NCBI GenBank assembly: GCA_963715985.1
Contig: CAVQSP010000013.1
Span: forward strand, 1-64,000
Direction: 5' to 3'
DNA from: an uncultured Thermoleophilia bacterium
Lineage (GTDB): Bacteria; Actinomycetota; Thermoleophilia; UBA2241
DNA: 64,000 nt
Shown: positions 34,752 to 45,414 of the stretch, piece after piece
How the letters are laid out: every line of letters starts with the position of its first letter
How positions within the stretch are numbered: position 1 is the stretch's first letter
Made by a program: the position numbers and the translations under genes
Notes under the pieces: model-generated
Seen by the model: the letters and a program-made list of their open reading frames with translations, nothing else
What the model was told of the DNA's origin: nothing
Databases searched by the model: none

Positions 34752-37640
34752 GTGGTGTTTATCGTACTCGCCTTGTTGACACTAGTGATGCAGCGAGTCA
34801 CTGTGCGGGCAACGCATGAGGCGCCGACCACTGCGGGGGGTGGGCTGGTGTTCGGGTCCTTCACCATCGAGAGCCTCGACAAGACCGAGGAGTACCCGGT
34901 CGCTCAGGCTCGTATCGACGTCGGCCGCGGCGCCGACAACGACCTCACGCTGCCCTTCCCCACCGTCTCCACCCACCACGCGCGTCTGCTCGCCGACTCG
35001 TCGGGCTGCCGCATCCTCGACCTGGGCAGCGCCAACGGCACCTTCGTGAACGGCGACGAGTTGCCGGTCAAGGAGGAACGGGCGCTGCGCGAGGGCGACG
35101 TGGTGCAGATCGGACCCTTCACGCTCCGCTATCACGCGGTGACCGGCCCCGCGGGCGCCGCCGGGCCGACGCTCAGGCCCGGCCACACCGTCGTCCTCCC
35201 GCACGGCCTGCCGCCGCGCCTGACCGTGCGCACGCCGGACGGCTCGCGAGAGTTCCCGCTGGAGAAGGCCACGCTCACCCTGGGGCGCGACCCCGACAAC
35301 GACATCGTCGTGCCGGCGGAGGCGGTGTCGCGTCACCACGCGGCGCTCGAGCGCCGCGCAGGCGGCTTCGTCATCAAGGACCTGGGCAGCACCAACGGCC
35401 TCAGCGTCGACGGCCGCCTCGTACAGGAGAGGCAGCTCGAGCCCGGCGACAGCGTGGCGATCGGCAAGAGCGTCACGCTGACCTTCGTGGCGGGGGAGGA
35501 TTACGCCGCCGAGCTGCTGGGCGCGGCCGCCGGCCCGCCGGCGCCGGCGGTCCTGGATGTGCCCGAGGGCCAGGCGGTGAGCCTGGGTCGCGGCGCCGAG
35601 ACGAGCGTGCACCTCGTCCACCCGCAGGTGTCCGCGCTGCACGCCCAGGTGCGGCGCCGCGAGGGCCAGTACGTCATCCAGGACATGGGCAGCAGCGCCG
35701 GCACTTTCGTCAACGGCCAGCAGGTCGGCGAGCGGGAGCTGCACGAGGGCGACGTCGTCCGCATCGGGCCCAACCAGCTGGTCCTCAAGGACGGTCGCCT
35801 GCAGCTGATGAGCGAAGAAGGCCGCCTGCGCCTGGACGCCTTCCACCTCGGCAAGACGGTCGGCAAGGAGAAGAAGAAGATCCTGCGCGACGTCTCGCTC
35901 TCCATCAAGCCGCAGGAGTTCATCGCCGTGGTGGGCGGCAGCGGCGCCGGCAAGTCGACGCTGGTCACGGCCCTGTGCGGCTTCAAGCCGGCCACAGAGG
36001 GCGCGGTGCTGCTCAACAGCGTCGACCTGTACCGTAACTTCGACGCCTACCGCAACGAGATGGGCTACGTGCCGCAGGACGACATCATCCACGTCGACCT
36101 CACGGTCTACAAGGCCTTGGACTACGCGGCCCAGCTGCGCATGCCCGCCGACACCACGGCGACGGAGCGAGAGCAGCGCGTGCGCGAGGTCATCGACGAG
36201 CTCGACCTCAAGAGCGCCGCCGACACCACGATCCGCCAGCTCAGCGGCGGTCAGCGCAAGCGGGCCTCCATCGGCGTGGAGCTGCTCACGCGGCCGAGCC
36301 TCTTCTTCCTCGACGAGGCCACGTCGGGTCTGGATCCGGCCACCGAGAGCCAGATGATGAAGCTGCTGCGCAAGCTCGCCGACCAGGGGCGCACCATCGT
36401 CCTCATCACGCACGCCACCAAGAACGTGATGGTGTGCGACAAGGTGTGCTTCCTCGTGCGCGGCGGCCTGCTCGCCTTCTACGGGCCTCCCGAGGAAGCG
36501 CTGGGCTACTTCGGCGTCCAGGACTTCGACGAGATCTACGAGAAGCTCGAGAGCGGCGGCACCCCGGAGGAATGGGCGCAGCGATATCTCGCCTCGCCGC
36601 AGATCCAGGAGTACGTGGTGAAGCCGCTCACCGAGGTCGCCCAGTCGTGGACCGGCGGCAACGGCGGCGGCAACGGCGCCGGCGCCGGCCGCGGGACCCC
36701 GGCTCCCGGCGTGGCGGCCCCGGGCGGCTCCGCGGCGTCCGGCGCCAAGGTGGGCAGCACGTCCGGCTGGAGCCAGTTCCGCATCCTCTCCAGCCGGTAC
36801 CTGCACATCATCATGCGAGACAAGAAGACCCTGATCCTGCTGCTGGCGATCGCGCCGGTGCTGTCGGCGATGGACTTCGTCACCTGGAAGCGCGATCTGT
36901 TCGACCCCGTGACCGGCAGCGCCACCAAGGTGGTCACCATGCTGTTCATGGCCTGCCTGGTCGGCGTTCTCGTCGGGACCATCACCTCGGTGCGCGAGAT
37001 CGTCAAGGAGGACGCCATCTATCGCCGCGAGCGCATGGTGTGCGTCAAGGTCTTCCCCTATGTGGCCTCCAAGATCGCCGTGGGGTCTATCTTCGCTCTC
37101 TACAGCGCCTTCATCCTCTTCCTCTCCAAGGTCCTCGCCGTGGACTTCAGCCACCTGAGCCCCGCGGGGTACGCGGCGCTGCTCTTCACCTTCATCCTGT
37201 GCACGTTCGCGGGTCTGATGTGGGGGCTGCTGGTGTCCGCGGTGGCGCCGACTGAGGACAGGGCCATGTTGCTGGTCATCCTCGTGCTGGTGCCTCAGTT
37301 CATCTTCTCTGGCGGCATGCTGCCCGTCGCCGACCTGGGTGTCGCGGGCAAGTTCATCGGGGTGCTCACGTCGACGCGCTGGGGCCTCGGCGCAATGGCG
37401 ACCGTGGCCGAGATCAAGACCGGGGCGGGCAAGGCGGCGGACGTGTCGGACGTCAGCCTGCCGGGCATCAAGGGTCTCGAGACGGTGGGCGAGAAGGTGG
37501 CCATGGTGAGGAATCTCGACAGCCAGTACGGCGCCATCTTCCACGTCAACGTGGGCTTCTACTGGCTCATGTCACTGGTGCTCATCGTCGGCCTGGCGGG
37601 CATCATCTACGTACTGCAGAAGCGCAAGGACACGCTCTGA
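34752..37640 (+). CDS. ABC exporter with three FHA domains + ATPase + permease (Rv1747-like; start uncertain)
   Basis: Three GR..S..H..D..S.NG/AG FHA patterns; GGSGAGKST, LSGGQ, FLDE; C-terminal TM domain. Confidence 0.93.
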   Translation: MVFIVLALLTLVMQRVTVRATHEAPTTAGGGLVFGSFTIESLDKTEEYPVAQARIDVGRGADNDLTLPFPTVSTHHARLLADSSGCRILDLGSANGTFVNGDELPVKEERALREGDVVQIGPFTLRYHAVTGPAGAAGPTLRPGHTVVLPHGLPPRLTVRTPDGSREFPLEKATLTLGRDPDNDIVVPAEAVSRHHAALERRAGGFVIKDLGSTNGLSVDGRLVQERQLEPGDSVAIGKSVTLTFVAGEDYAAELLGAAAGPPAPAVLDVPEGQAVSLGRGAETSVHLVHPQVSALHAQVRRREGQYVIQDMGSSAGTFVNGQQVGERELHEGDVVRIGPNQLVLKDGRLQLMSEEGRLRLDAFHLGKTVGKEKKKILRDVSLSIKPQEFIAVVGGSGAGKSTLVTALCGFKPATEGAVLLNSVDLYRNFDAYRNEMGYVPQDDIIHVDLTVYKALDYAAQLRMPADTTATEREQRVREVIDELDLKSAADTTIRQLSGGQRKRASIGVELLTRPSLFFLDEATSGLDPATESQMMKLLRKLADQGRTIVLITHATKNVMVCDKVCFLVRGGLLAFYGPPEEALGYFGVQDFDEIYEKLESGGTPEEWAQRYLASPQIQEYVVKPLTEVAQSWTGGNGGGNGAGAGRGTPAPGVAAPGGSAASGAKVGSTSGWSQFRILSSRYLHIIMRDKKTLILLLAIAPVLSAMDFVTWKRDLFDPVTGSATKVVTMLFMACLVGVLVGTITSVREIVKEDAIYRRERMVCVKVFPYVASKIAVGSIFALYSAFILFLSKVLAVDFSHLSPAGYAALLFTFILCTFAGLMWGLLVSAVAPTEDRAMLLVILVLVPQFIFSGGMLPVADLGVAGKFIGVLTSTRWGLGAMATVAEIKTGAGKAADVSDVSLPGIKGLETVGEKVAMVRNLDSQYGAIFHVNVGFYWLMSLVLIVGLAGIIYVLQKRKDTL

Positions 37641-37738: not shown

Positions 37739-40132
37739 GTGGATCGCGAAGACGAACTCATCGGTCGTTCTCTGGGGCGCTACAAGATCACCGCCCTGGT
37801 GGGCAAGGGCGGCATGGCCACCGTGTACAAGGCCACCCACCCCGGGCTGGGGCAGACCGTGGCCATCAAGGTCATGCACCCGCATATGGCCACCGACCCC
37901 GACATGCTGGGGCGCTTCCACAACGAGGCGCAGGCCGTCGCCAACCTCCGCCACCCCAACATCGTGCGCGTGCTCGACTTCGACGTGGTCGATGACCAGT
38001 ACTTCATGGTCATGGAGTACGTCGACGGCCCCACCCTCGCGGCTCAGCTCGGCGGCCTCGCGGGACAGGGGCGGCGCATGCCGCCCGATGAGGTCATCCG
38101 CATCTTCGACCCGCTGTGCTCCGCCGTGGACTATGCCCACAAGCAGGGCATGATCCACCGCGACATCAAGCCGTCCAACGTCCTCATGACGCCCCAGGGC
38201 GACCCGGTCCTCACCGACTACGGCATCGCCAAGATGGTCGGCGTCACCCAGCACACCGCCACCGGCACGGTGATGGGTTCCGCCTACTACATGTCGCCTG
38301 AGCAGGCGCAGGGCAGCGGCATGGACGGCCGCACGGACATCTACTCGCTCGGCGTCATGCTCTTCGAGATGCTCACGGGCCGCGTGCCGTACGACGGCGA
38401 CACGCTGGCCACGGTGCTGGTCAAGCACATCACTTCGCCGGTGCCGGCGGTGCGCTCCTTCAACGCCGATCTGCCGCCGCTGCTGGACGACGTGATGAAC
38501 GTGGCGCTGGCCAAAGACCCGGGGCAGCGCTTCCAGACGGGGCAGGCCCTGGCCGTCGCCCTGCGCCAGGGCCTCTCGCCTTCTGCGGGGGCCGCGGCCG
38601 GCGAGACGCGGCTGGAGCGCGGGCCCGGCGCTGCGCCCGTGCACGCGTACACACGCGTGGAGCCGGCGGCGCCCGGCGTGACCGGAGATCATGCTGCGGC
38701 GCGAACGGCCCAGCGCGACGTGTTCGTCAGCTATGCGGAACGCGACAAGGCCGCGGCCGACGCCGTGGTCACGCGGCTCGAGGCTGAGCGCTTCAGCTGC
38801 TGGATCGCGCCGCGCGACGTGCTGCCCGGGCGGAGCTTCGCGCAGTCCCTGGGCAGCGCCATCCACGCGGCGCGTGTCTTCGTGCTCGTCTTCTCCGAGG
38901 CCACCAACCAGTCGCACCAGGTCGAACGTGAGCTGGACATGGCCATCTCCTCCGGCCTGCCCATCATCCCACTGCGCGTCGAGGCCGTACGGCCGCGCGA
39001 GTCCATCGAGTACTACCTCGCCGGCCAGCACTGGCTGGACGCCTACACGCCCCCGCTCGACCAGCATCTGGGGCGTCTCGCCGAGGCGGTCTCGACGATC
39101 CTGCTGCAGGCGCCCGCGCCTGCCGCCGCGCACGATTCCACGGCCTACGAGGCGCCTGTCGCTGCGGCGCCCGTGGCAGCGGCGGCAGTGGCGGAGGCCA
39201 CCACCCTGGAGCCCTCACCCGTCGAGCCCGCGCCGGAGCCTGCGGCAGCCCCCGCCGCCACGACCCTCGAGCCGGCGGCGGACGCCGCCGCCGCCGTTGC
39301 AGTGGCCGCTGGGGCCGCCGCGGCCACGTCGTTCGAGCCGCCGCCCGCGACAGCCGAGGTGGTCGAGGTCGAGCCGGTCGCGGAGGCCGAAGCGGTCGCG
39401 GAGCCCGAACCGGTCGCCGAGGCCGAGCCGGTCGAAGAACCGGCACCGGAGCCGGAGGCAGAGGCCGCGCCCGCGGTCGAACCGGAGCTTGTCGCCGAGC
39501 CCGGGGCAGAGCCGATCGTCGAGACCGAGCCGGAACCGGCCGCGGAGTCTACGCCAGAAGTCATCGCGGCCGAACCGGTACCACTTGTCGTGCCCGAGCC
39601 GGCTCCGGTGGTCCCGGAGCCTGAGCCCGAGCCAGTCGCCGAGGAGCCCGAACCCGCCGCAGCTGAGCCGGAGCCGGAGCCGGCTGTCTCCGAGCCCGGA
39701 CCGGAGCTCGCCGCGGAGGTTGCGGCGGCCGCGGTGGTGGCGGAAGTCGTGACGTCCGAGGCCCCGGCGGCGACCACCTACGAGGTCCCGGAGCCTGAGC
39801 CCGCAGCAGCGGCAGCCACGGCCTTTGAGGCGGCCGAGGCGCCCGCCGCCGCGGCGACCACCTACGAGACTCCCGAACCTGCTGCAGCGGCGCCCACGAC
39901 CTACGAGAGGCCGGCGGCGGCTGCGACCGCCTACGAGGCGGCGGCGTCGGCAGGGGTCGCCGCCGCCGGGATGCCGGTGCAGCCCGTCGCGGTGCCCACC
40001 CCCGACACGCGCGCCAGAGCCGCCGCGGAGTTCCCCAAGCCGGCGTTCCACCGGCGCGCCATGGTCCTCGCCGGCGTGGTGGGGGTCGCCTGGATCGTGA
40101 TCCTGTTCGTGCTCGACCGGCTCGTCCTCTGA
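37739..40132 (+). CDS. Hanks-type Ser/Thr kinase fused to TIR domain, Pro/Glu/Ala-rich linker and C-terminal TM
   Basis: GKGGMATVY, VAIKV, HRDIKPSN, TDYGIAK, YMSPEQ; TIR DVFVSYA..CWIAPRDV..VERELDMA. Confidence 0.92.
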   Translation: MDREDELIGRSLGRYKITALVGKGGMATVYKATHPGLGQTVAIKVMHPHMATDPDMLGRFHNEAQAVANLRHPNIVRVLDFDVVDDQYFMVMEYVDGPTLAAQLGGLAGQGRRMPPDEVIRIFDPLCSAVDYAHKQGMIHRDIKPSNVLMTPQGDPVLTDYGIAKMVGVTQHTATGTVMGSAYYMSPEQAQGSGMDGRTDIYSLGVMLFEMLTGRVPYDGDTLATVLVKHITSPVPAVRSFNADLPPLLDDVMNVALAKDPGQRFQTGQALAVALRQGLSPSAGAAAGETRLERGPGAAPVHAYTRVEPAAPGVTGDHAAARTAQRDVFVSYAERDKAAADAVVTRLEAERFSCWIAPRDVLPGRSFAQSLGSAIHAARVFVLVFSEATNQSHQVERELDMAISSGLPIIPLRVEAVRPRESIEYYLAGQHWLDAYTPPLDQHLGRLAEAVSTILLQAPAPAAAHDSTAYEAPVAAAPVAAAAVAEATTLEPSPVEPAPEPAAAPAATTLEPAADAAAAVAVAAGAAAATSFEPPPATAEVVEVEPVAEAEAVAEPEPVAEAEPVEEPAPEPEAEAAPAVEPELVAEPGAEPIVETEPEPAAESTPEVIAAEPVPLVVPEPAPVVPEPEPEPVAEEPEPAAAEPEPEPAVSEPGPELAAEVAAAAVVAEVVTSEAPAATTYEVPEPEPAAAAATAFEAAEAPAAAATTYETPEPAAAAPTTYERPAAAATAYEAAASAGVAAAGMPVQPVAVPTPDTRARAAAEFPKPAFHRRAMVLAGVVGVAWIVILFVLDRLVL

Positions 40133-40156: not shown

Positions 40157-41416
40157 TCAGGCGGTCCTCGCGGCGCTGCGGCCCAGGGATGGGGCAGCCC
40201 AGGTCACCACTACGACCACGACGTCGATGCCCAGCGTAGCGAGCACATACGTGGTGTTGTCGAGGTTCCCGAAGTACGTCAGGGCGAAGACCGCGGCAGT
40301 GGCGATGCCCACCACTGTGCCGAGGGCGGCCATCGGCAGCGCCAACGGGCCTCGCGGACGCACCGCGGCGGCGCGCATGACGGCGTAGGTCTGGACCGCG
40401 AAGAGCAGGCCGCCTCCGATGAGCACCAGCCAGGAGAGCCAGCCCGTCTCACCGCCGCCACCGCCTCCTCCTCCGCCTCCGCCGCCCATGTCCTGCACGC
40501 GCGTGAGGTTGACGGCGGCGGCCTTGGCCAGTTGGGGGTCGTCCGCCGTCTTCTCGAGGTCCGCTAGGGTCGCCTTCGCGGCCCCAGTGTCGCCCTGCTC
40601 CGCGGAGACGAGTGCGAGCCCCATCTCCGCGTAGTCGTTCTTCACCTGTTCCTTGGATGCGGTGAAGTCGGCCTTGGCGCCCGTCACGTCCCCGTCATCG
40701 AGCTTGACCATGCCGCGCTGGTAGTACGCGGCGGCGAGATTCGTGGCGATGGCGTCGGCGAGATCCTGGTCGGGCTCCTGGCCCGCCGCCTTCTCAAAGG
40801 AGGCGATGCCCTGGTCGTAGTCGCCCTGTGCGCACTGTACACAGCCCAGCGCGACGTCGGTCCCCGCGCCGGGCATCACGGTGAGCGACTTCTCGAAGTC
40901 GGTCTGCGCCTTGGCGTACTCGCCGGCGTCCGCCTCGATGAGGCCGAGGTTGAGGTAGGCGGCGGATTCAACGATCTTGCCGTTGGGCGTCGGTGGTGAG
41001 TCGGTGGCCTTCTGCGTGGGGTCGCGGCCTGTAGCGGGCTCGCCGCTGACGATGTAGCCGGCGCCGATGTTGAGGTCGGCGCCGCGATACTTGGCGTTGA
41101 GGCGCAGCACCTTCTTCAGCAGGGGCTGGGCCTTGTCGAACTGCCCGCTCTCGATGTAGCAGACGGCGAGGTTGTTGAGGGCGTCGGTGTCGGCGGGCTC
41201 GAGCTTGACGGCCTCCTTGAAGAAGGCCGTCGCCTTGACGAGGTCGCCGGCGGCGAGCGCCTCGCAGCCCTTGTTGTACGGGTGAGACGTGGCAGCGGCG
41301 GCCGGGCCCGACAGCGCGATGCACGTCACCGCCGCAAGCAGCGCGAGCACGAGCGCGACAACGGCCACGCGGGTCGCTGCACGATGGGGAAGACCGGCTG
41401 GAAGCAGCGCGCTCAC
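40157..41416 (-). CDS. Exported TPR-repeat protein with three C-terminal TM helices
   Basis: Signal peptide; TPRs (DALNNLAVCY, AYLNLGLIEA, NLAAAYYQRG); poly-Gly linker; starts just after the precursor stop. Confidence 0.85.
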   Translation of the reverse strand: MSALLPAGLPHRAATRVAVVALVLALLAAVTCIALSGPAAAATSHPYNKGCEALAAGDLVKATAFFKEAVKLEPADTDALNNLAVCYIESGQFDKAQPLLKKVLRLNAKYRGADLNIGAGYIVSGEPATGRDPTQKATDSPPTPNGKIVESAAYLNLGLIEADAGEYAKAQTDFEKSLTVMPGAGTDVALGCVQCAQGDYDQGIASFEKAAGQEPDQDLADAIATNLAAAYYQRGMVKLDDGDVTGAKADFTASKEQVKNDYAEMGLALVSAEQGDTGAAKATLADLEKTADDPQLAKAAAVNLTRVQDMGGGGGGGGGGGGETGWLSWLVLIGGGLLFAVQTYAVMRAAAVRPRGPLALPMAALGTVVGIATAAVFALTYFGNLDNTTYVLATLGIDVVVVVVTWAAPSLGRSAARTA

Positions 41417-41417
41417 G

Positions 41418-41999
41418 TCAGTAGGGCTGCGCCTGGCAGGAGCAGCTGTCGGACTGGCACGAGCAGGAGGACACGCTCTGGCACGTGCACTGCGCGTTGC
41501 ACGAGCATGTGCCCCCTCCGCCGCCTCCCCCTCCGGAGTCGGACACGCAGCTGCACGCGGCCACCGCCTCGCAGGTGCACACCTGGTTGCAGGAGCACAC
41601 CAGGTTGCACGTGCAGATCGTACCTCCGAAGGCGTCCTTGCCGGTGAGCCTGGTCTTGGTGGTGTGGGCACGCGTGACCTTGCCGGGCTTGTCCGTCTTC
41701 TTGGGGACCTTCTTGGGGCCGGACACCCTCTTGGAGGGGTCCTCGGGCGCGATGAACACGCCCGGCTCAGGGTACTGGTACTCGGGCTCCGGAGCGCTCC
41801 AGTGCAGGACCTCGGGCGAGGCGTCAGAGCTGGGCGTCGCGCTCGCCGACGAGCCCAGGAGGTCGTCGGGGGCGCTCTCGCCGCTGCGCAGGGCCGCCCA
41901 CTCCACGGGAGCGTCGCTCTCGTAGATGGCGAGCTTGGGCGGCTCGTACTCTTGCGGGGCGGCCGCGCTCAGACCGTCGCCGGGCTGCTCGTCGGACAC
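41418..41999 (-). CDS. Cys-rich putative RiPP precursor (193 aa; eight C-[S/T]-C motifs)
   Basis: SD GGAGGAGGT before GTG 41999; leader YEPPKL; core after FGG is TICTCNLVCSCNQVCTCEAVAACSCVSDS-G8-TCSCNAQCTCQSVSSCSCQSDSCSCQAQPY. Confidence 0.8.
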   Translation of the reverse strand: MSDEQPGDGLSAAAPQEYEPPKLAIYESDAPVEWAALRSGESAPDDLLGSSASATPSSDASPEVLHWSAPEPEYQYPEPGVFIAPEDPSKRVSGPKKVPKKTDKPGKVTRAHTTKTRLTGKDAFGGTICTCNLVCSCNQVCTCEAVAACSCVSDSGGGGGGGGTCSCNAQCTCQSVSSCSCQSDSCSCQAQPY

Positions 42000-43345
42000 T
42001 GGATCACCTCCTCCAGCTGGTCCAGTGTGAGGCGCCGGTTGATGCCGCAGCGGGCCAGCACGGCCTCGTCGGCGCCGGCGTACATGCGCTTGGCCGGGCA
42101 GTCGCCGGCGCAGTGGTACTTGGCGAAGCAGCGCGAGCAACGCGGCGCCTCGTCGACCGTGAGGCGCCGCAGGGCGGCGACGCGGGCCGGGTCGAAGACG
42201 AAGGTGCGCGTCGCCGGGTCGTGGGCGCCGTAGATGAAGACGCCGGCGCGAGGGTCGTCACGGCCTGTGACTTCGTAACAGGCCGTCGCGTCGCCCTCGG
42301 TGGTGACGTTGAAGCTGGGCAGGCTGGCCTGGCAGAAGGTGCGGCAGAGCGAGCCCTGGTGGGCGCCGGAATAGGCGAGCTCGACGCCCAGGTCCGCGGC
42401 CTCGCGGCGGCAGGCCCGGAACGCCTCGACGAAGCGTGCCGCCGTGGGGGCCTGCAGCCCGCTGCCCACCGAGCGCCCGCACATGAACAGCGGCTCGAGG
42501 TGGATGGTGCGCAGGCGGTAGGTCGTGGCGAGGTGGTGCACGGTCTCGGCGGCGTGATCGAGGGCCTCGGCGGTGCAGGTGAGGCGCACGCCGAGGACGG
42601 CGTCGCTCTCCGACAGGCGGGCCAGCGTGCGCTCCACGGCAGCCGAGGAGGGGCCGCCGCCGGGGCGCGGCCGCAGGCGGTCCTGGACCTCCGGCGGTCC
42701 ATCCACCGACACCATCACCGAGGTCATGGTGGCGGCCAGGTAGTCGCGCATCTCGTCGTTCATCACGCCGTTGGTGGCAGTGCCGGTGCTGAGCCGCAAG
42801 CCCTGCGCGTCGCACGCCCGCCGGGCGTGATCCACGCTGCGCCGCAGCGTATCGCCGGCGAGGGTGGGCTCGCCGCCGCCGTGGAAGGAGAGGCGGACCT
42901 CGGGTCTGCCCTGCGCGACGGCGTTGGCGACGACCAGGTCGACGGCGTCGACGGCGACCTCGGGATCGAGGAAGCGGCTGTGATCGCCGCCCGAGGCGTA
43001 GCAGTACACGCAGCGCAGGTTGCAGGCGCTGGTGAGGAAGAGCGTGACCTCGGTGGGCGCCGGCACTTCCGGCGGCGAGCTCGTGCGGTCCGCCGCGCCC
43101 CCGCCCTGCTCCGCCGGCGCCTCCCCGTCCCCGGTCCTGCTGATGACCTCGAGGTCCTCCAGCAGGTCGAGGACCTCGCGGCTGCGCGCATCGCGTCTAA
43201 CGGTGCGCTCCGCGGCGATGTCGCTCAGCAGCGCCAGAGCCGCGTCGTTGACGACGACGCTGGTCTGAATGAGCGGTGCGTACACGAGGTGGCCCTCGGA
43301 GCGGGGCAGCGAGAAGACCTCGGTGGTGAGGTGGTACCTGGTCAC
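41969..43345 (-). CDS. Radical SAM/SPASM peptide maturase
   Basis: CNLRCVYC, FHGGGEPTL, SVDG; SPASM cysteines FCQAS..TACYE..CSRCFAKYHCAGDC..RC. Confidence 0.93.
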   Translation of the reverse strand: MTRYHLTTEVFSLPRSEGHLVYAPLIQTSVVVNDAALALLSDIAAERTVRRDARSREVLDLLEDLEVISRTGDGEAPAEQGGGAADRTSSPPEVPAPTEVTLFLTSACNLRCVYCYASGGDHSRFLDPEVAVDAVDLVVANAVAQGRPEVRLSFHGGGEPTLAGDTLRRSVDHARRACDAQGLRLSTGTATNGVMNDEMRDYLAATMTSVMVSVDGPPEVQDRLRPRPGGGPSSAAVERTLARLSESDAVLGVRLTCTAEALDHAAETVHHLATTYRLRTIHLEPLFMCGRSVGSGLQAPTAARFVEAFRACRREAADLGVELAYSGAHQGSLCRTFCQASLPSFNVTTEGDATACYEVTGRDDPRAGVFIYGAHDPATRTFVFDPARVAALRRLTVDEAPRCSRCFAKYHCAGDCPAKRMYAGADEAVLARCGINRRLTLDQLEEVIQCPTSSPATV

Positions 43346-43785
43346 GACTGCTCCTGCGAAGCGCCGGCGCGGGTGCCCGGCACGCCGCTCACCAGGCCCT
43401 GGGCGGCCAGCGTCGTGAGGCACGCGATGGCGTCGGTGCTGGCCGCGGCGGCGCGGAGGCCGTACGTCGTGCCGAGGACGCCGGCGATGTCGGTGACGGT
43501 GCGGCGTCCGTCGACGGCGCGCCACACCACGGCGGCCGAGCGGTTGAGGCGGAACACGGGGCCGTGCGGGTCCACGGGCATGGGGCGCAACTCGACGCCG
43601 CCGGCGCGTGCCACTTCGTGCAGGTTCTGGGCGCGGCGCGGACGCGCCGCGCCGACCGTCTGCACTCCGCCGGGCTGCCGGCTCCAGCCGCGCCCTAGCA
43701 GCGCGGCCGCCAGCACGCAGCCGCCGGCTACGATGAAGGTCTTCCTGGTGGTCCCCCAGCCTGCCCGCTCCATACCAGCGGCCAT
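43342..43785 (-). CDS. PqqD-family RiPP recognition element with N-terminal hydrophobic/Tat-like segment
   Basis: VFRLNRSAAVVWRAVDGRRTVTDIAGVL..DAIACLTTLAAQGLV; N-terminus TTRKTFIVAGGCVLAAALL; GTGA overlap with the rSAM gene. Confidence 0.85.
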   Translation of the reverse strand: MAAGMERAGWGTTRKTFIVAGGCVLAAALLGRGWSRQPGGVQTVGAARPRRAQNLHEVARAGGVELRPMPVDPHGPVFRLNRSAAVVWRAVDGRRTVTDIAGVLGTTYGLRAAAASTDAIACLTTLAAQGLVSGVPGTRAGASQEQS

Positions 43786-43992
43786 GCGTAACCCCCCGGT
43801 CCCTTGCGAGCGGGGCGATGACCCCGCGACTGCGACCAATCGTGGCCCCTGCCGCCTCTGGCGTCAAGGATTGCGAGACGGGGGACGATGAGAGTGATTG
43901 ACTTACGCTGGTCTTGGCGTAGAACGGGTATGCGAGTGTCAGTGAATGGGGTGCGACGCTCTGCCGTCGCTGAACAACGGGGGGTGGCGCTG

Positions 43993-45414
43993 ATGAGACC
44001 TCGATTCCGCAGTGAGGGCCTACTCGGCTCCGGCAGGCGCCGGCGGCCTCATCCTGAGGTGGCACTGGTCGCCGTGCTCGCGCTGGGGGTCCTCGCCTCA
44101 CTCATGGTGACGGCGGCTGCAGGGGCGGCGACCGTGTCGAGGACGACGAAGGGGGTGGCCGTCCACCTGCGCGCCGTGTCAGGTGCGGCAGTCGCGCACG
44201 GCGCGGAGACGAGGGCGCGCGTGGGCAGCCTGCCGCGCCCGGCGACCCCTGGCCCGGGGGTCTCGTGGCTGGGCGGAAGAGCCGCAGTCAACACCGTCTT
44301 CTACGACGGCTCCGAGGGCAGCACTTCGCCGTGGACGGTGACGGGCAACCCGACGTGGGCCATCACAACCTACCGCGCGGCGGCCGGCACGCGTTCGTCG
44401 TACTGTGCCGGCTCGGCCGTCTCTGCACCCGGGCCCTACTTCAACAACATGGACGGCTGGCGCGTGGCCGGGCCGTTCGACCTGTCCACGCTCTCGTCGG
44501 CGACATTGCAGTTCCAGATGTACGAGGACACTCAAAGGGACAAGGATTGGCTCTGGTCGTTCGTCTCCACCAACGGTAGCGACTTCTACGGCTGGGGCGA
44601 GTCCGGCACCACCAATGGCTGGGTCTCGCGGAGCCGAGACCTCACAGCGGTCCCGACGCTGGGCAACGTCTGCGGCAAGAGTCAGGTGTGGATCGCCTTC
44701 GAGTTCACCAGCGATGCGTCCATCGTCGCCGAGGGTGTCTATGTGGACGAGGTCAGTGTCACGGGCACCGGCGGTGGCGGCAGCGGCCAGGCGGGCCTCG
44801 TCCTGGCCGCCGACGCCGAGGTCGTGCCCTACAACGGGTCGGTGAACCTCATCGGCGCCATCCTGGACGCCAACACCGGATCGCTGATCCCGGGCAAGGC
44901 CGTCGACGTGTACGCGACCCAGGAGAACTCGCTCACCCCGGACATCGTCTTCCTCGAGACCCTCACGTCCGCCACCGGCGAGTACACCACGAGGTGGAGC
45001 GGCATCCGGAAGCGCACCTACTTCCTCACATCGTTCCCCGGCGACACGGCGTATCCGGGGGAGATCTACAGCAACCTCGTCAAGGTCATGGCGCGCGCCA
45101 AGATCACCCCGCCGGCGGTGCCGTCCACGGTGCGCGCGTACTCGCGCGTCACGAGCTGGGGGACGATCAAGCCGCCGCACACCACCGCGCAGAACAAGTC
45201 GAGCCACACCAAGGTCATCGCGGAGCACTACCTGGGCGGCAGGTGGCAGTCCGTTCTCACGCTCTTCGCCAACAAGTACAAGAACACGCGTGCGGAGACC
45301 ATGTACGCCGTCACGGTCAGGTGGGCCCCCGGCAAGTGGCGCATCATGGCGGTGCACCAGGACGACGACCACGCCAAGTCGACTTCGTCGTGGAGGACGT
45401 TCACAGCCCGTTGA
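43993..45414 (+). CDS. Secreted/surface protein with jelly-roll-like domain
   Basis: Signal peptide; FYDGSEG..W, FDLSTLSSATLQF, IAFEFTSDAS..EGVYVDEVSV; basic beta-rich C-terminal domain. Confidence 0.7.
   Translation: MRPRFRSEGLLGSGRRRRPHPEVALVAVLALGVLASLMVTAAAGAATVSRTTKGVAVHLRAVSGAAVAHGAETRARVGSLPRPATPGPGVSWLGGRAAVNTVFYDGSEGSTSPWTVTGNPTWAITTYRAAAGTRSSYCAGSAVSAPGPYFNNMDGWRVAGPFDLSTLSSATLQFQMYEDTQRDKDWLWSFVSTNGSDFYGWGESGTTNGWVSRSRDLTAVPTLGNVCGKSQVWIAFEFTSDASIVAEGVYVDEVSVTGTGGGGSGQAGLVLAADAEVVPYNGSVNLIGAILDANTGSLIPGKAVDVYATQENSLTPDIVFLETLTSATGEYTTRWSGIRKRTYFLTSFPGDTAYPGEIYSNLVKVMARAKITPPAVPSTVRAYSRVTSWGTIKPPHTTAQNKSSHTKVIAEHYLGGRWQSVLTLFANKYKNTRAETMYAVTVRWAPGKWRIMAVHQDDDHAKSTSSWRTFTAR

Follow-up and report, generated by a model that had tools for sequence, protein, structure and literature searches.

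We describe here a four-gene cassette, comprising a radical S-adenosylmethionine (SAM) enzyme, a cysteine-rich precursor and two further proteins, that is encoded in a stretch of 64,000 nucleotides from an uncultured Thermoleophilia bacterium (positions 1 to 64,000 of contig CAVQSP010000013.1; this whole stretch is referred to below as the window). The cassette occupies positions 43785-40157 of the minus strand, to which all cassette coordinates refer, and the window sequence holds four open reading frames (ORFs) there with no frame breaks. The first encodes a PqqD-like protein of 147 aa (43342..43785), that is, a recognition element (RRE) for RiPPs (peptides that are made ribosomally and then modified post-translationally); it matches Pfam PqqD (PF05402) over residues 76-132 at 39.3 bits, above the cut-off of 23.4. 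It is followed by a radical SAM/SPASM maturase of 458 aa with an N-terminal RRE-like domain (41969..43345; Pfam Radical_SAM), a precursor or substrate protein of 193 aa with a GTG start and no match in Pfam or NCBIfam (41418..41999), and a tetratricopeptide repeat (TPR) membrane protein of 419 aa (40157..41416; Pfam TPR_2).

The gene junctions point to translational coupling. The GTG start of the maturase gene shares bases with the TGA stop of the PqqD gene (GTGA), the 5' end of the precursor gene overlaps the 3' end of the maturase gene by 31 nt, with GGAGGAGG a few bases upstream of the GTG start of the precursor, and the GTG start of the TPR gene lies one base past the precursor stop. A preliminary description of the locus, made from the nucleotide sequence, had proposed a coupled operon of these four genes; the overlapping or abutting starts and stops and the retention of the gene order in relatives bear this out, and its PqqD assignment agrees with the Pfam score given above.

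The identical four genes in identical order were found in two of 24 other genomes of the same genus (G019 and G014), whose maturases are about 68% identical to the window enzyme by tblastn and 69-70% in the genome search, and the same cassette order recurs in the metagenome loci L093-L095. Orthologues of the PqqD protein are present in six loci (L002, L003, L093, L094, L095 and L138). The ratio of nonsynonymous to synonymous substitution rates (dN/dS), measured against the window copies, lies at 0.21-0.41 for precursor genes and at 0.39-0.54 for those of the PqqD protein. The cassette is a real, conserved and selected gene set; an origin as chance ORFs in a GC-rich genome was considered and is ruled out because of this conservation and these dN/dS values. 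In 16 other genomes of the class, the best match to the maturase reached only E 2.5e-27. The protein database contains, among the matches listed, at least 53 cluster representatives with at least 50% identity over at least 90% of the maturase, and these are almost all metagenomic, one being labelled Actinobacteria/Actinomycetota bacterium. About half of the sampled words of 40157-43785 occur in contigs of 20 wetland, soil or freshwater-sediment metagenome runs, one of which may be the source sample. There were no RNA runs among the sequencing runs listed for the cassette stretch.

The precursor and its maturase

In the precursor, a long leader, which is conserved, precedes a tail of 65 residues built from C-[ST]-C-[NDQE]-x-[VI] units. 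The leader carries the motif Y-E-P-P-K-L at residues 18-23 (41931..41948), continues through an acidic and then a Lys-rich stretch, and ends in F-G-G at residues 124-126 (41622..41630), at the junction with the core. The Cys-repeat core (41421..41621) has 16 Cys in eight CxC pairs, each of which is either C-S-C or C-T-C; four pairs make up each of two blocks, between which stands a linker of exactly eight Gly (residues 156-163; 41511..41534), and the 21-residue pattern CSCNxxCTCxxVxxCSCxSDS is present twice. These features, together with the strong Shine-Dalgarno sequence, had all been listed in the preliminary description, and each was found in its place.

In an alignment of six precursors (that of the window and five orthologues, 60-79% identical), 15 of the 16 Cys, Y-x-P-P-x-L and D-A-F-G-G are invariant columns, with Y18, P20, P21 and L23 of the leader motif and D-A-F-G-G before the core each retained in 6/6 sequences. 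The 126-residue leader is conserved as strongly as the core, and the length and composition of the Gly8 linker differ among orthologues. The orthologous precursor at L095:2030-2650 has extra C-A-C-V-S-D-T units and, by hand count, ten CxC pairs; repeat number therefore varies among close relatives. Within the 4.35-Mb assembly, 19 ORFs have at least two matches to the repeat motif, and the precursor, with eight, is the only one to have more than three. Searched against 1.84 billion cluster representatives, a profile built from the six precursors found only 13 at E <= 0.001, four of them at E <= 1e-30, and the precursor matched 0 NCBIfam or Pfam families at E up to 1. An AlphaFold2 prediction from the six-row alignment gave a predicted local distance difference test (pLDDT) value of 45.5 and a predicted template modelling score (pTM) of 0.17, values that support no particular fold.

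The maturase carries the CxxxCxxC motif of the radical SAM cluster (43001..43024; C108, C112 and C115) and a SPASM region with seven auxiliary-cluster Cys (42047..42334; C338, C356, C403, C406, C412, C416 and C433), the latter spaced Cx12Gx4C ... Cx2Cx5Cx3C ... C as read from the sequence. All ten are invariant in 18/18 aligned relatives, whose identity to the window enzyme extends down to 30%. Membership of the radical SAM superfamily follows from the Pfam Radical_SAM score (PF04055; 47.9 bits, cut-off 29.5). The enzyme has the seven Cys of SPASM-domain maturases and its model aligns full-length to CteB; the Pfam SPASM model gave no match to it at E up to 1.

Among NCBIfam families, the best matches of the enzyme are PapB, the nif11 maturase, the SCIFF maturase and QhpD, and none reaches its cut-off. 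The PapB family (NF047865) scores 115.9 bits against 340, aligned over residues 100-423; the SCIFF maturase (TIGR03974) 97.6 against 425; QhpD (TIGR03906) 85 against 453, with E 4e-24 over residues 57-419; the CXXX-repeat maturase 43.2 against 350; and the Cys-every-fifth family (CefB) 64.9 against 600. Membership in SCIFF, PapB, CXXX-repeat, CefB and QhpD was therefore rejected, every cut-off having been missed. A search of the PDB with the family profile placed CteB (5WGG/5WHY) first, with E 6.2e-45 for 5wgg, and the anaerobic sulfatase maturase (anSME) second, with E 1e-24. The AlphaFold2 model of the enzyme (pLDDT 87.4, pTM 0.86) has 5why_A, again CteB, as its top Foldseek match, with template modelling scores of 0.64/0.69 over 468 columns, and residues 1-70 of the model form a beta/alpha domain at the position of the CteB peptide-binding domain. 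The enzyme is nearest to CteB by sequence and by predicted fold and reaches no NCBIfam family cut-off; on these grounds, we assign it to an unnamed family of CteB-like maturases that act on peptides or proteins.

CteB and its substrate CteA (SCIFF, thermocellin) are thus the best solved relatives. The two systems share a radical SAM core, a full SPASM region, an N-terminal RRE-like domain and a Cys-rich substrate encoded next to the enzyme. Unlike CteB, the window enzyme lies below the SCIFF cut-off and its precursor matches no SCIFF model; the window substrate, of 193 aa, has a conserved leader of 126 residues and a CxC repeat in hexads; and the window adds a separate PqqD protein, with an N-terminus resembling a signal for twin-arginine translocation (Tat), and a TPR membrane protein. 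The preliminary description had held that the precursor pattern differs from SCIFF and CXXX-repeat targets, which accords with the missed cut-offs of both families. NCBIfam, which it had named as a place to look for an existing family, contains none that covers the precursor (0 matches) or the enzyme (PapB being the best, at 115.9 against 340).

The enzyme clade and its substrates

To these comparisons we added a survey of 172 loci (160 from genome and metagenome collections, plus 12) in which every ORF was scored with a hidden Markov model (HMM) of the enzyme clade. A clade enzyme was defined by an HMM score of at least 340, and a substrate-like neighbour by location on the same strand and at least two matches to C-x-C-[NDEQHVS]. 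Such a neighbour accompanies the enzyme at 32 of 51 clade loci and at two of 119 loci with lower-scoring radical SAM enzymes (one of the two being a truncated clade member), a contrast to be read as an indication rather than as a clean statistic, since the rule for the motif was set after examples had been seen and the loci are related. On a looser reading, Cys-rich neighbours occur at five further loci of the 51 (L018, L098, L124, L131 and L137); several of the remaining clade loci have almost no flank.

Three types of substrate recur. The first, of 176-207 aa, is that of the window. The second, of 110-150 aa, has leaders with motifs of the L-P-K-P-E-V and F-K-P-G-M-K-T types and ends in C-S-C-V-P-V-H; the representatives P0127-P0129 bridge these two types. 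The third comprises proteins of 450-1000 aa that contain WD40 propellers (Pfam), with tails of the form P-C-G-x-P-x-P-x-G-A-x-C-T-C-N-C-V ... C-T-C-N-x-I-C-T-C-[IV]-P-V. There are also singleton substrates, in L014, L015 and L020. Over 174 CxC pairs, the unit held in common reads C-[TS]-C-[NDQE]-x-[VI] and recurs most often with a period of 6; across substrate types, Thr or Ser stands at position +1 in 45/50 and 84/124 units, and Asn, Asp, Gln or Glu at position +3 in 39/50 and at least 75/124. The Cys tails of the substrates of L014, L015, L016, L017, L018 and L020 matched no NCBIfam or Pfam family, and the WD40 domains were the only parts of these proteins to do so. At the distant cassette L098, a 769-aa protein encoded on the opposite strand (L098:1609-3915, minus strand) contains, internally, a CxC segment that closes with C-T-C-V-P-V, and its C-terminus appears TIR-like by eye. 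In L014 (Acidobacteria), the cassette includes a further gene (L014:7270-8943), for an ApyD-related radical SAM protein of the B12-binding kind (250.5 bits, cut-off 750), and some cassettes may thus add a second modification.

The preliminary description had reasoned that homologous enzymes lacking CxC-rich neighbours would speak against its proposal; such neighbours are present, in the proportions given above. Its interpretation is thus partly supported, and its label, a new RiPP class, proves too narrow in that the clade also sits beside WD40 proteins and small peptides with the same repeat.

This breadth of substrates bears on another explanation of the locus, an ordinary secreted ranthipeptide antibiotic whose leader is cut at G-G and whose 65-residue core leaves through an ABC exporter, with the TPR and PqqD proteins as accessories. 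A PqqD protein, a radical SAM/SPASM enzyme and a Cys-rich peptide are indeed the classic layout, and the invariant D-A-F-G-G stands directly before the core; G-G also immediately precedes the first CxC in the substrates of L101, L102 and L119. However, the conserved set (PqqD, maturase, precursor, TPR protein and a divergently encoded 508-aa protein) includes no C39 peptidase or exporter, a leader as conserved as its core is unusual for one that is discarded, and the WD40 lipoproteins that carry the same tail beside other clade enzymes cannot be small diffusible antibiotics. We regard an antibiotic as very improbable.

We consider it likely that the enzyme modifies the precursor. By family and fold, the CteB-like enzyme would bind the leader through its own N-terminal RRE-like domain and, while still in the cytoplasm, cross-link the Cys tail intramolecularly. 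The likeliest links would be thioethers, as in ranthipeptides, from the Cys sulfur to a carbon of a neighbouring Asn, Asp, Gln or Glu, or Thr or Ser. Known ranthipeptide donor-acceptor motifs include CX3D for PapB, NxxC for NxxcB and Cys-Asp/Glu for QhpC, and the fixed offsets of Asn/Asp/Gln/Glu and Thr/Ser from Cys in the repeat fit the thioether motifs of PapB, NxxcB, QhpD and CteB. By this analogy, thioether cross-linking is our somewhat favoured assignment.

The same Cys tail might be a metallothionein-like domain that binds a metal or cluster and is loaded in the cytoplasm before export through Tat, with the radical SAM enzyme performing a reaction other than thioether formation, such as Cys oxidation or the forming of C-C links. 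CxC pairs are typical metal ligands. One class of acceptor per repeat would suffice for the thioethers and leave half of the Cys free, and the second-best solved relative, anSME, is a Cys-oxidising enzyme (E 1e-24). Additionally, Tat substrates are often cofactor proteins, according to the available text of PMC3712460. The nearest families by sequence and fold are, on the other hand, the thioether-forming CteB, PapB and SCIFF maturase, and acceptor residues at fixed Cys offsets are a known ranthipeptide pattern. A metal-binding tail is accordingly rated as improbable, if less so than an antibiotic.

Candidate Tat signals and the route of export

The window PqqD protein begins M-A-A-G-M-E-R-A-G-W-G-T-T-R-K-T-F-I, and its residues 13-31 (43693..43749) form a Tat-like N-terminus in which T-R-K-T-F-I precedes a Gly/Ala-rich stretch without charged residues. 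Among 11 aligned PqqD-like partners, which come from several lineages, R14 and F17 never vary and T13 hardly does, and four of the 11 are only 15-26% identical to the window PqqD domain. The residue after R14 is R in 5/11 (L093, L095, L014, L102 and L096), K in 5/11 and S in 1/11. The resulting motif, T-R-[RKS]-x-F-[LI], is the core of the Tat consensus S/T-R-R-x-F-L-K. A PqqD HMM built from actinobacterial seeds alone missed the partners in L096, L101, L102 and L168, which an iterated HMM found.

The position of the candidate signal depends on the kind of substrate. The WD40 substrates, the L020 substrate and P0132 have their own R-R motif and uncharged stretch; the R-R motif stands behind a leader of about 40 residues, and the stretch often ends in a lipobox Cys. 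Where the substrate is signal-less, a PqqD-like ORF with T-R-[RKS]-x-F and an uncharged stretch is present at 10 of 12 assessable loci, as against none of 13 assessable loci at which the substrate has its own R-R signal; this table was scripted, and three loci were then reclassified by eye (L014 for a spurious out-of-frame match, L020 for a signal near the tail and L110 for an R-R-G-S-L outside the regular expression). The tatA and tatC genes directly adjoin the cassette in L101, L102 and L136, and in L102 tatA, tatC, PqqD, maturase and precursor genes follow one another on one strand. The window genome (G000) encodes TatC (227.8 bits, contig C17), and the host therefore has a Tat translocase component. 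Carriage of a partner protein on a single signal is an accepted Tat mode in the available text of PMC10924467.

The two low-GC loci L101:2111-8765 and L102:2203-8926 carry, in a row, tatA, tatC, Tat-type PqqD, maturase, small precursor, TPR-like lipoprotein, B12-binding radical SAM and U32 peptidase genes. In L101, tatA and tatC are on the opposite strand and the PqqD protein keeps a single Arg (T-R-S-E-F-L-K); in L102, tatC reads as two frames.

Taken together, we lean towards a cassette that matures and exports a cysteine-repeat protein, by cross-linking and then by Tat. The comparative genomics suggests that the signal-less product would leave through Tat while held by the PqqD-like RRE protein, which would supply the signal in trans ('hitchhiking'). 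The Tat signals would be explained because a rigid cross-linked product cannot use the general secretory (Sec) pathway. Leaders of other substrate types contain, by eye, an element similar to the Y-E-P-P-K-L motif, [KRP]-P-[EKQR]-[LIV]. A complex prediction of PqqD residues 50-147 with leader residues 1-100 scored 0.16 against a mark of 0.32, a value that speaks neither for nor against binding.

A number of observations weigh against this proposal. The cassette is rare, with 0 matches at E <= 1e-80 in 400 genomes sampled evenly from the rest of the phylum, and the putative cross-links are assigned as thioethers by family resemblance. The PqqD HMM and the rule for the motif were constructed with examples already in view, and the loci are related to one another; the counts thus overstate independence. 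At least four clade loci with at least 1 kb on both sides (L104, L105, L117 and L118) have no candidate substrate; at L015 and L121, both assessable, a Cys-rich neighbour that lacks a signal stands without any PqqD-like protein; and L132 combines a cis signal with a PqqD-like ORF that has no uncharged stretch. The window PqqD protein itself has R-K and not two consecutive Arg, as do 5/7 of the actinobacterial-type copies, and the available text of a review (PMC7317946) describes even the conservative Lys substitution as poorly tolerated by Tat. Neither TIGR01409 nor Pfam TAT_signal (PF10518) matches the window protein at E up to 1, and these HMMs also miss the copies of L093, L095, L014, L002 and L101; among the relatives, the TIGR01409 cut-off is passed only by the L102 PqqD protein (17.3 against 16.7) and by the substrates of L128 and L106. 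Finally, the uncharged stretch has no clear A-x-A site for cleavage after it and is flanked on its C-terminal side by several Arg, so that it could simply anchor the protein in the membrane and leave the RRE domain in the cytoplasm.

Such an anchor, or a Sec-type signal, is the strongest of the alternatives: the RRE would be tethered at the cytoplasmic face and draw precursor and enzyme to the membrane near the TPR protein, and the modified product would remain inside the cell or use another transporter. The R-K pair, the silence of the Tat-signal HMMs, the Lys intolerance and the basic residues beyond the hydrophobic stretch would all suit it, and an FHA-ABC transporter gene (34752-37640) lies 4 kb away. 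An anchor would not, however, conserve T-R-x-x-F across PqqD domains that are 15-26% identical. Close orthologues, in L093 (maturase 72% identical) and L095, have R-R at this point; substrates bear Tat signals at precisely those loci that have no such PqqD protein (the 0/13 and 10/12 above); and three loci have tatA and tatC next to the cassette. None of the six close loci showed the ABC gene, although their flanks are too short to judge. We therefore hold the anchor to be unlikely, though it deserves more weight than the metal-binding or antibiotic explanations.

Returning to export through Tat, the comparison of loci makes a Tat link somewhat more likely than not for the family, and export is probably Tat-linked rather than driven by the TPR protein. 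For the window copy, whose motif has R-K, we rate continued use of Tat at slightly below even.

Neighbouring proteins, known systems and meaning

The TPR protein is a member of the TPR family (Pfam TPR_2, 75.8 bits over four stretches) and has, in order, an N-terminal signal or anchor, TPR repeats, a run of twelve Gly and three C-terminal hydrophobic segments with basic loops, an arrangement that would place the TPR domain outside the cell. It follows the precursor in all six actinobacterial-type loci, with orthologues in L002, L003, L093, L094 and L095. TPR-like lipoproteins take the equivalent place in L101, L102 and L119, where the TPR matches are weak and below cut-off (in L102 by eye only), and in L096 the place is taken by a 404-aa protein with a signal, a C-terminal hydrophobic segment and no Pfam match. 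More speculatively, the exported product might be received or retained by this membrane protein, the TPR domain of which would face outward.

Upstream of the cassette and divergent from it, a gene for a secreted protein of 508 aa (43888..45414, plus strand) is a conserved neighbour: by tblastn, it lies beside the cassette in L003, L093, L094 and L138, that is, in four of the five close loci with enough upstream sequence. It was not seen in the fifth, L002, which has a different protein there. The 508-aa protein belongs to no clear family, the only Pfam match being a sub-threshold one to InhA-like MAM (23.4 bits, cut-off 26.9). On the other side of the cassette, a gene on the plus strand (37739-40132) encodes a 797-aa protein. 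This protein combines a Ser/Thr kinase (165 bits) with a TIR domain (73 bits); it also has about 330 residues in a stretch rich in Ala, Pro and Glu, and a hydrophobic segment at the C-terminal end. Its gene runs towards the TPR gene, the two stops being 24 nt apart, and adjoins the L093 cassette too (71% identity); together with the TIR-like C-terminus in L098, the protein is one of two TIR occurrences near the system. The FHA-ABC gene mentioned above (34752-37640, plus strand) is a single 962-aa ORF with three FHA domains, an ABC ATPase and an ABC-2 permease.

The general kind of system to which the cassette belongs, a radical SAM/SPASM enzyme with an RRE and a Cys-rich substrate, is already known, and three systems besides CteB/CteA invite comparison. 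PapB installs Cys-Asp thioethers in the repeated CX3D motifs of freyrasin. It is the best NCBIfam match of the window enzyme, and the two substrates resemble each other in having many short repeats in which each Cys is paired with a nearby acidic or amide residue; the window enzyme differs in falling below the PapB cut-off, and its substrate in having two Cys per unit, a period of 6 or 8, a long leader and the Tat link. QhpD forms Cys-to-Asp/Glu thioethers in QhpC, a subunit of quinohemoprotein amine dehydrogenase that ends up outside the cytoplasm. There, too, a radical SAM/SPASM enzyme cross-links a protein and not just a peptide before export, whereas the window has no dehydrogenase subunits nearby, a different Cys pattern and a QhpD score below the cut-off. 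The small and large subunits of hydrogenase are an example of Tat 'hitchhiker' export, in which the signal is on one protein, the bound cargo is another and the cargo is first finished in the cytoplasm, as proposed here; the carrier in our case, however, would be a candidate leader-binding RRE domain and not a subunit of the same enzyme.

We found no description of the present system, or of an RRE as a Tat carrier, in the literature searched, which covered neither supplements nor subscription journals and so leaves room for a published mention. The systems treated in the available text of PMC10288494 (a different CxCxC motif, in an MftC-like group), PMC7159879 (FxSxx systems) and PMC7470986 are not the same one. 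The repeat, the substrate range and the Tat link are absent from NCBIfam release 20 and from Pfam.

The clade is distinctive in several respects. No curated name exists for it, and the family libraries do not yet contain its repeat, C-[ST]-C-[ND]-x-[VI]; the substrates extend from about 110 aa, for peptides, to about 500 aa, for WD40 proteins, and the Tat link is consistent. We tentatively combine these elements into a single scheme, in which the RRE (PqqD) domain would act as a Tat carrier that grips the leader of a signal-less cross-linked protein and draws this protein through the Tat pore; in sister systems, enzymes of the same clade would cross-link the C-terminal tails of WD40 lipoproteins that bear their Tat signal in cis; the whole would amount to a general pathway, found in many phyla, that cross-links its substrates and then exports them folded, from peptides to full-size proteins. 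A PqqD-like Tat carrier, if true, would explain how a rigid, signal-less, cross-linked product leaves the cell and would add a new function to those of the RiPP recognition domain that is most widespread.

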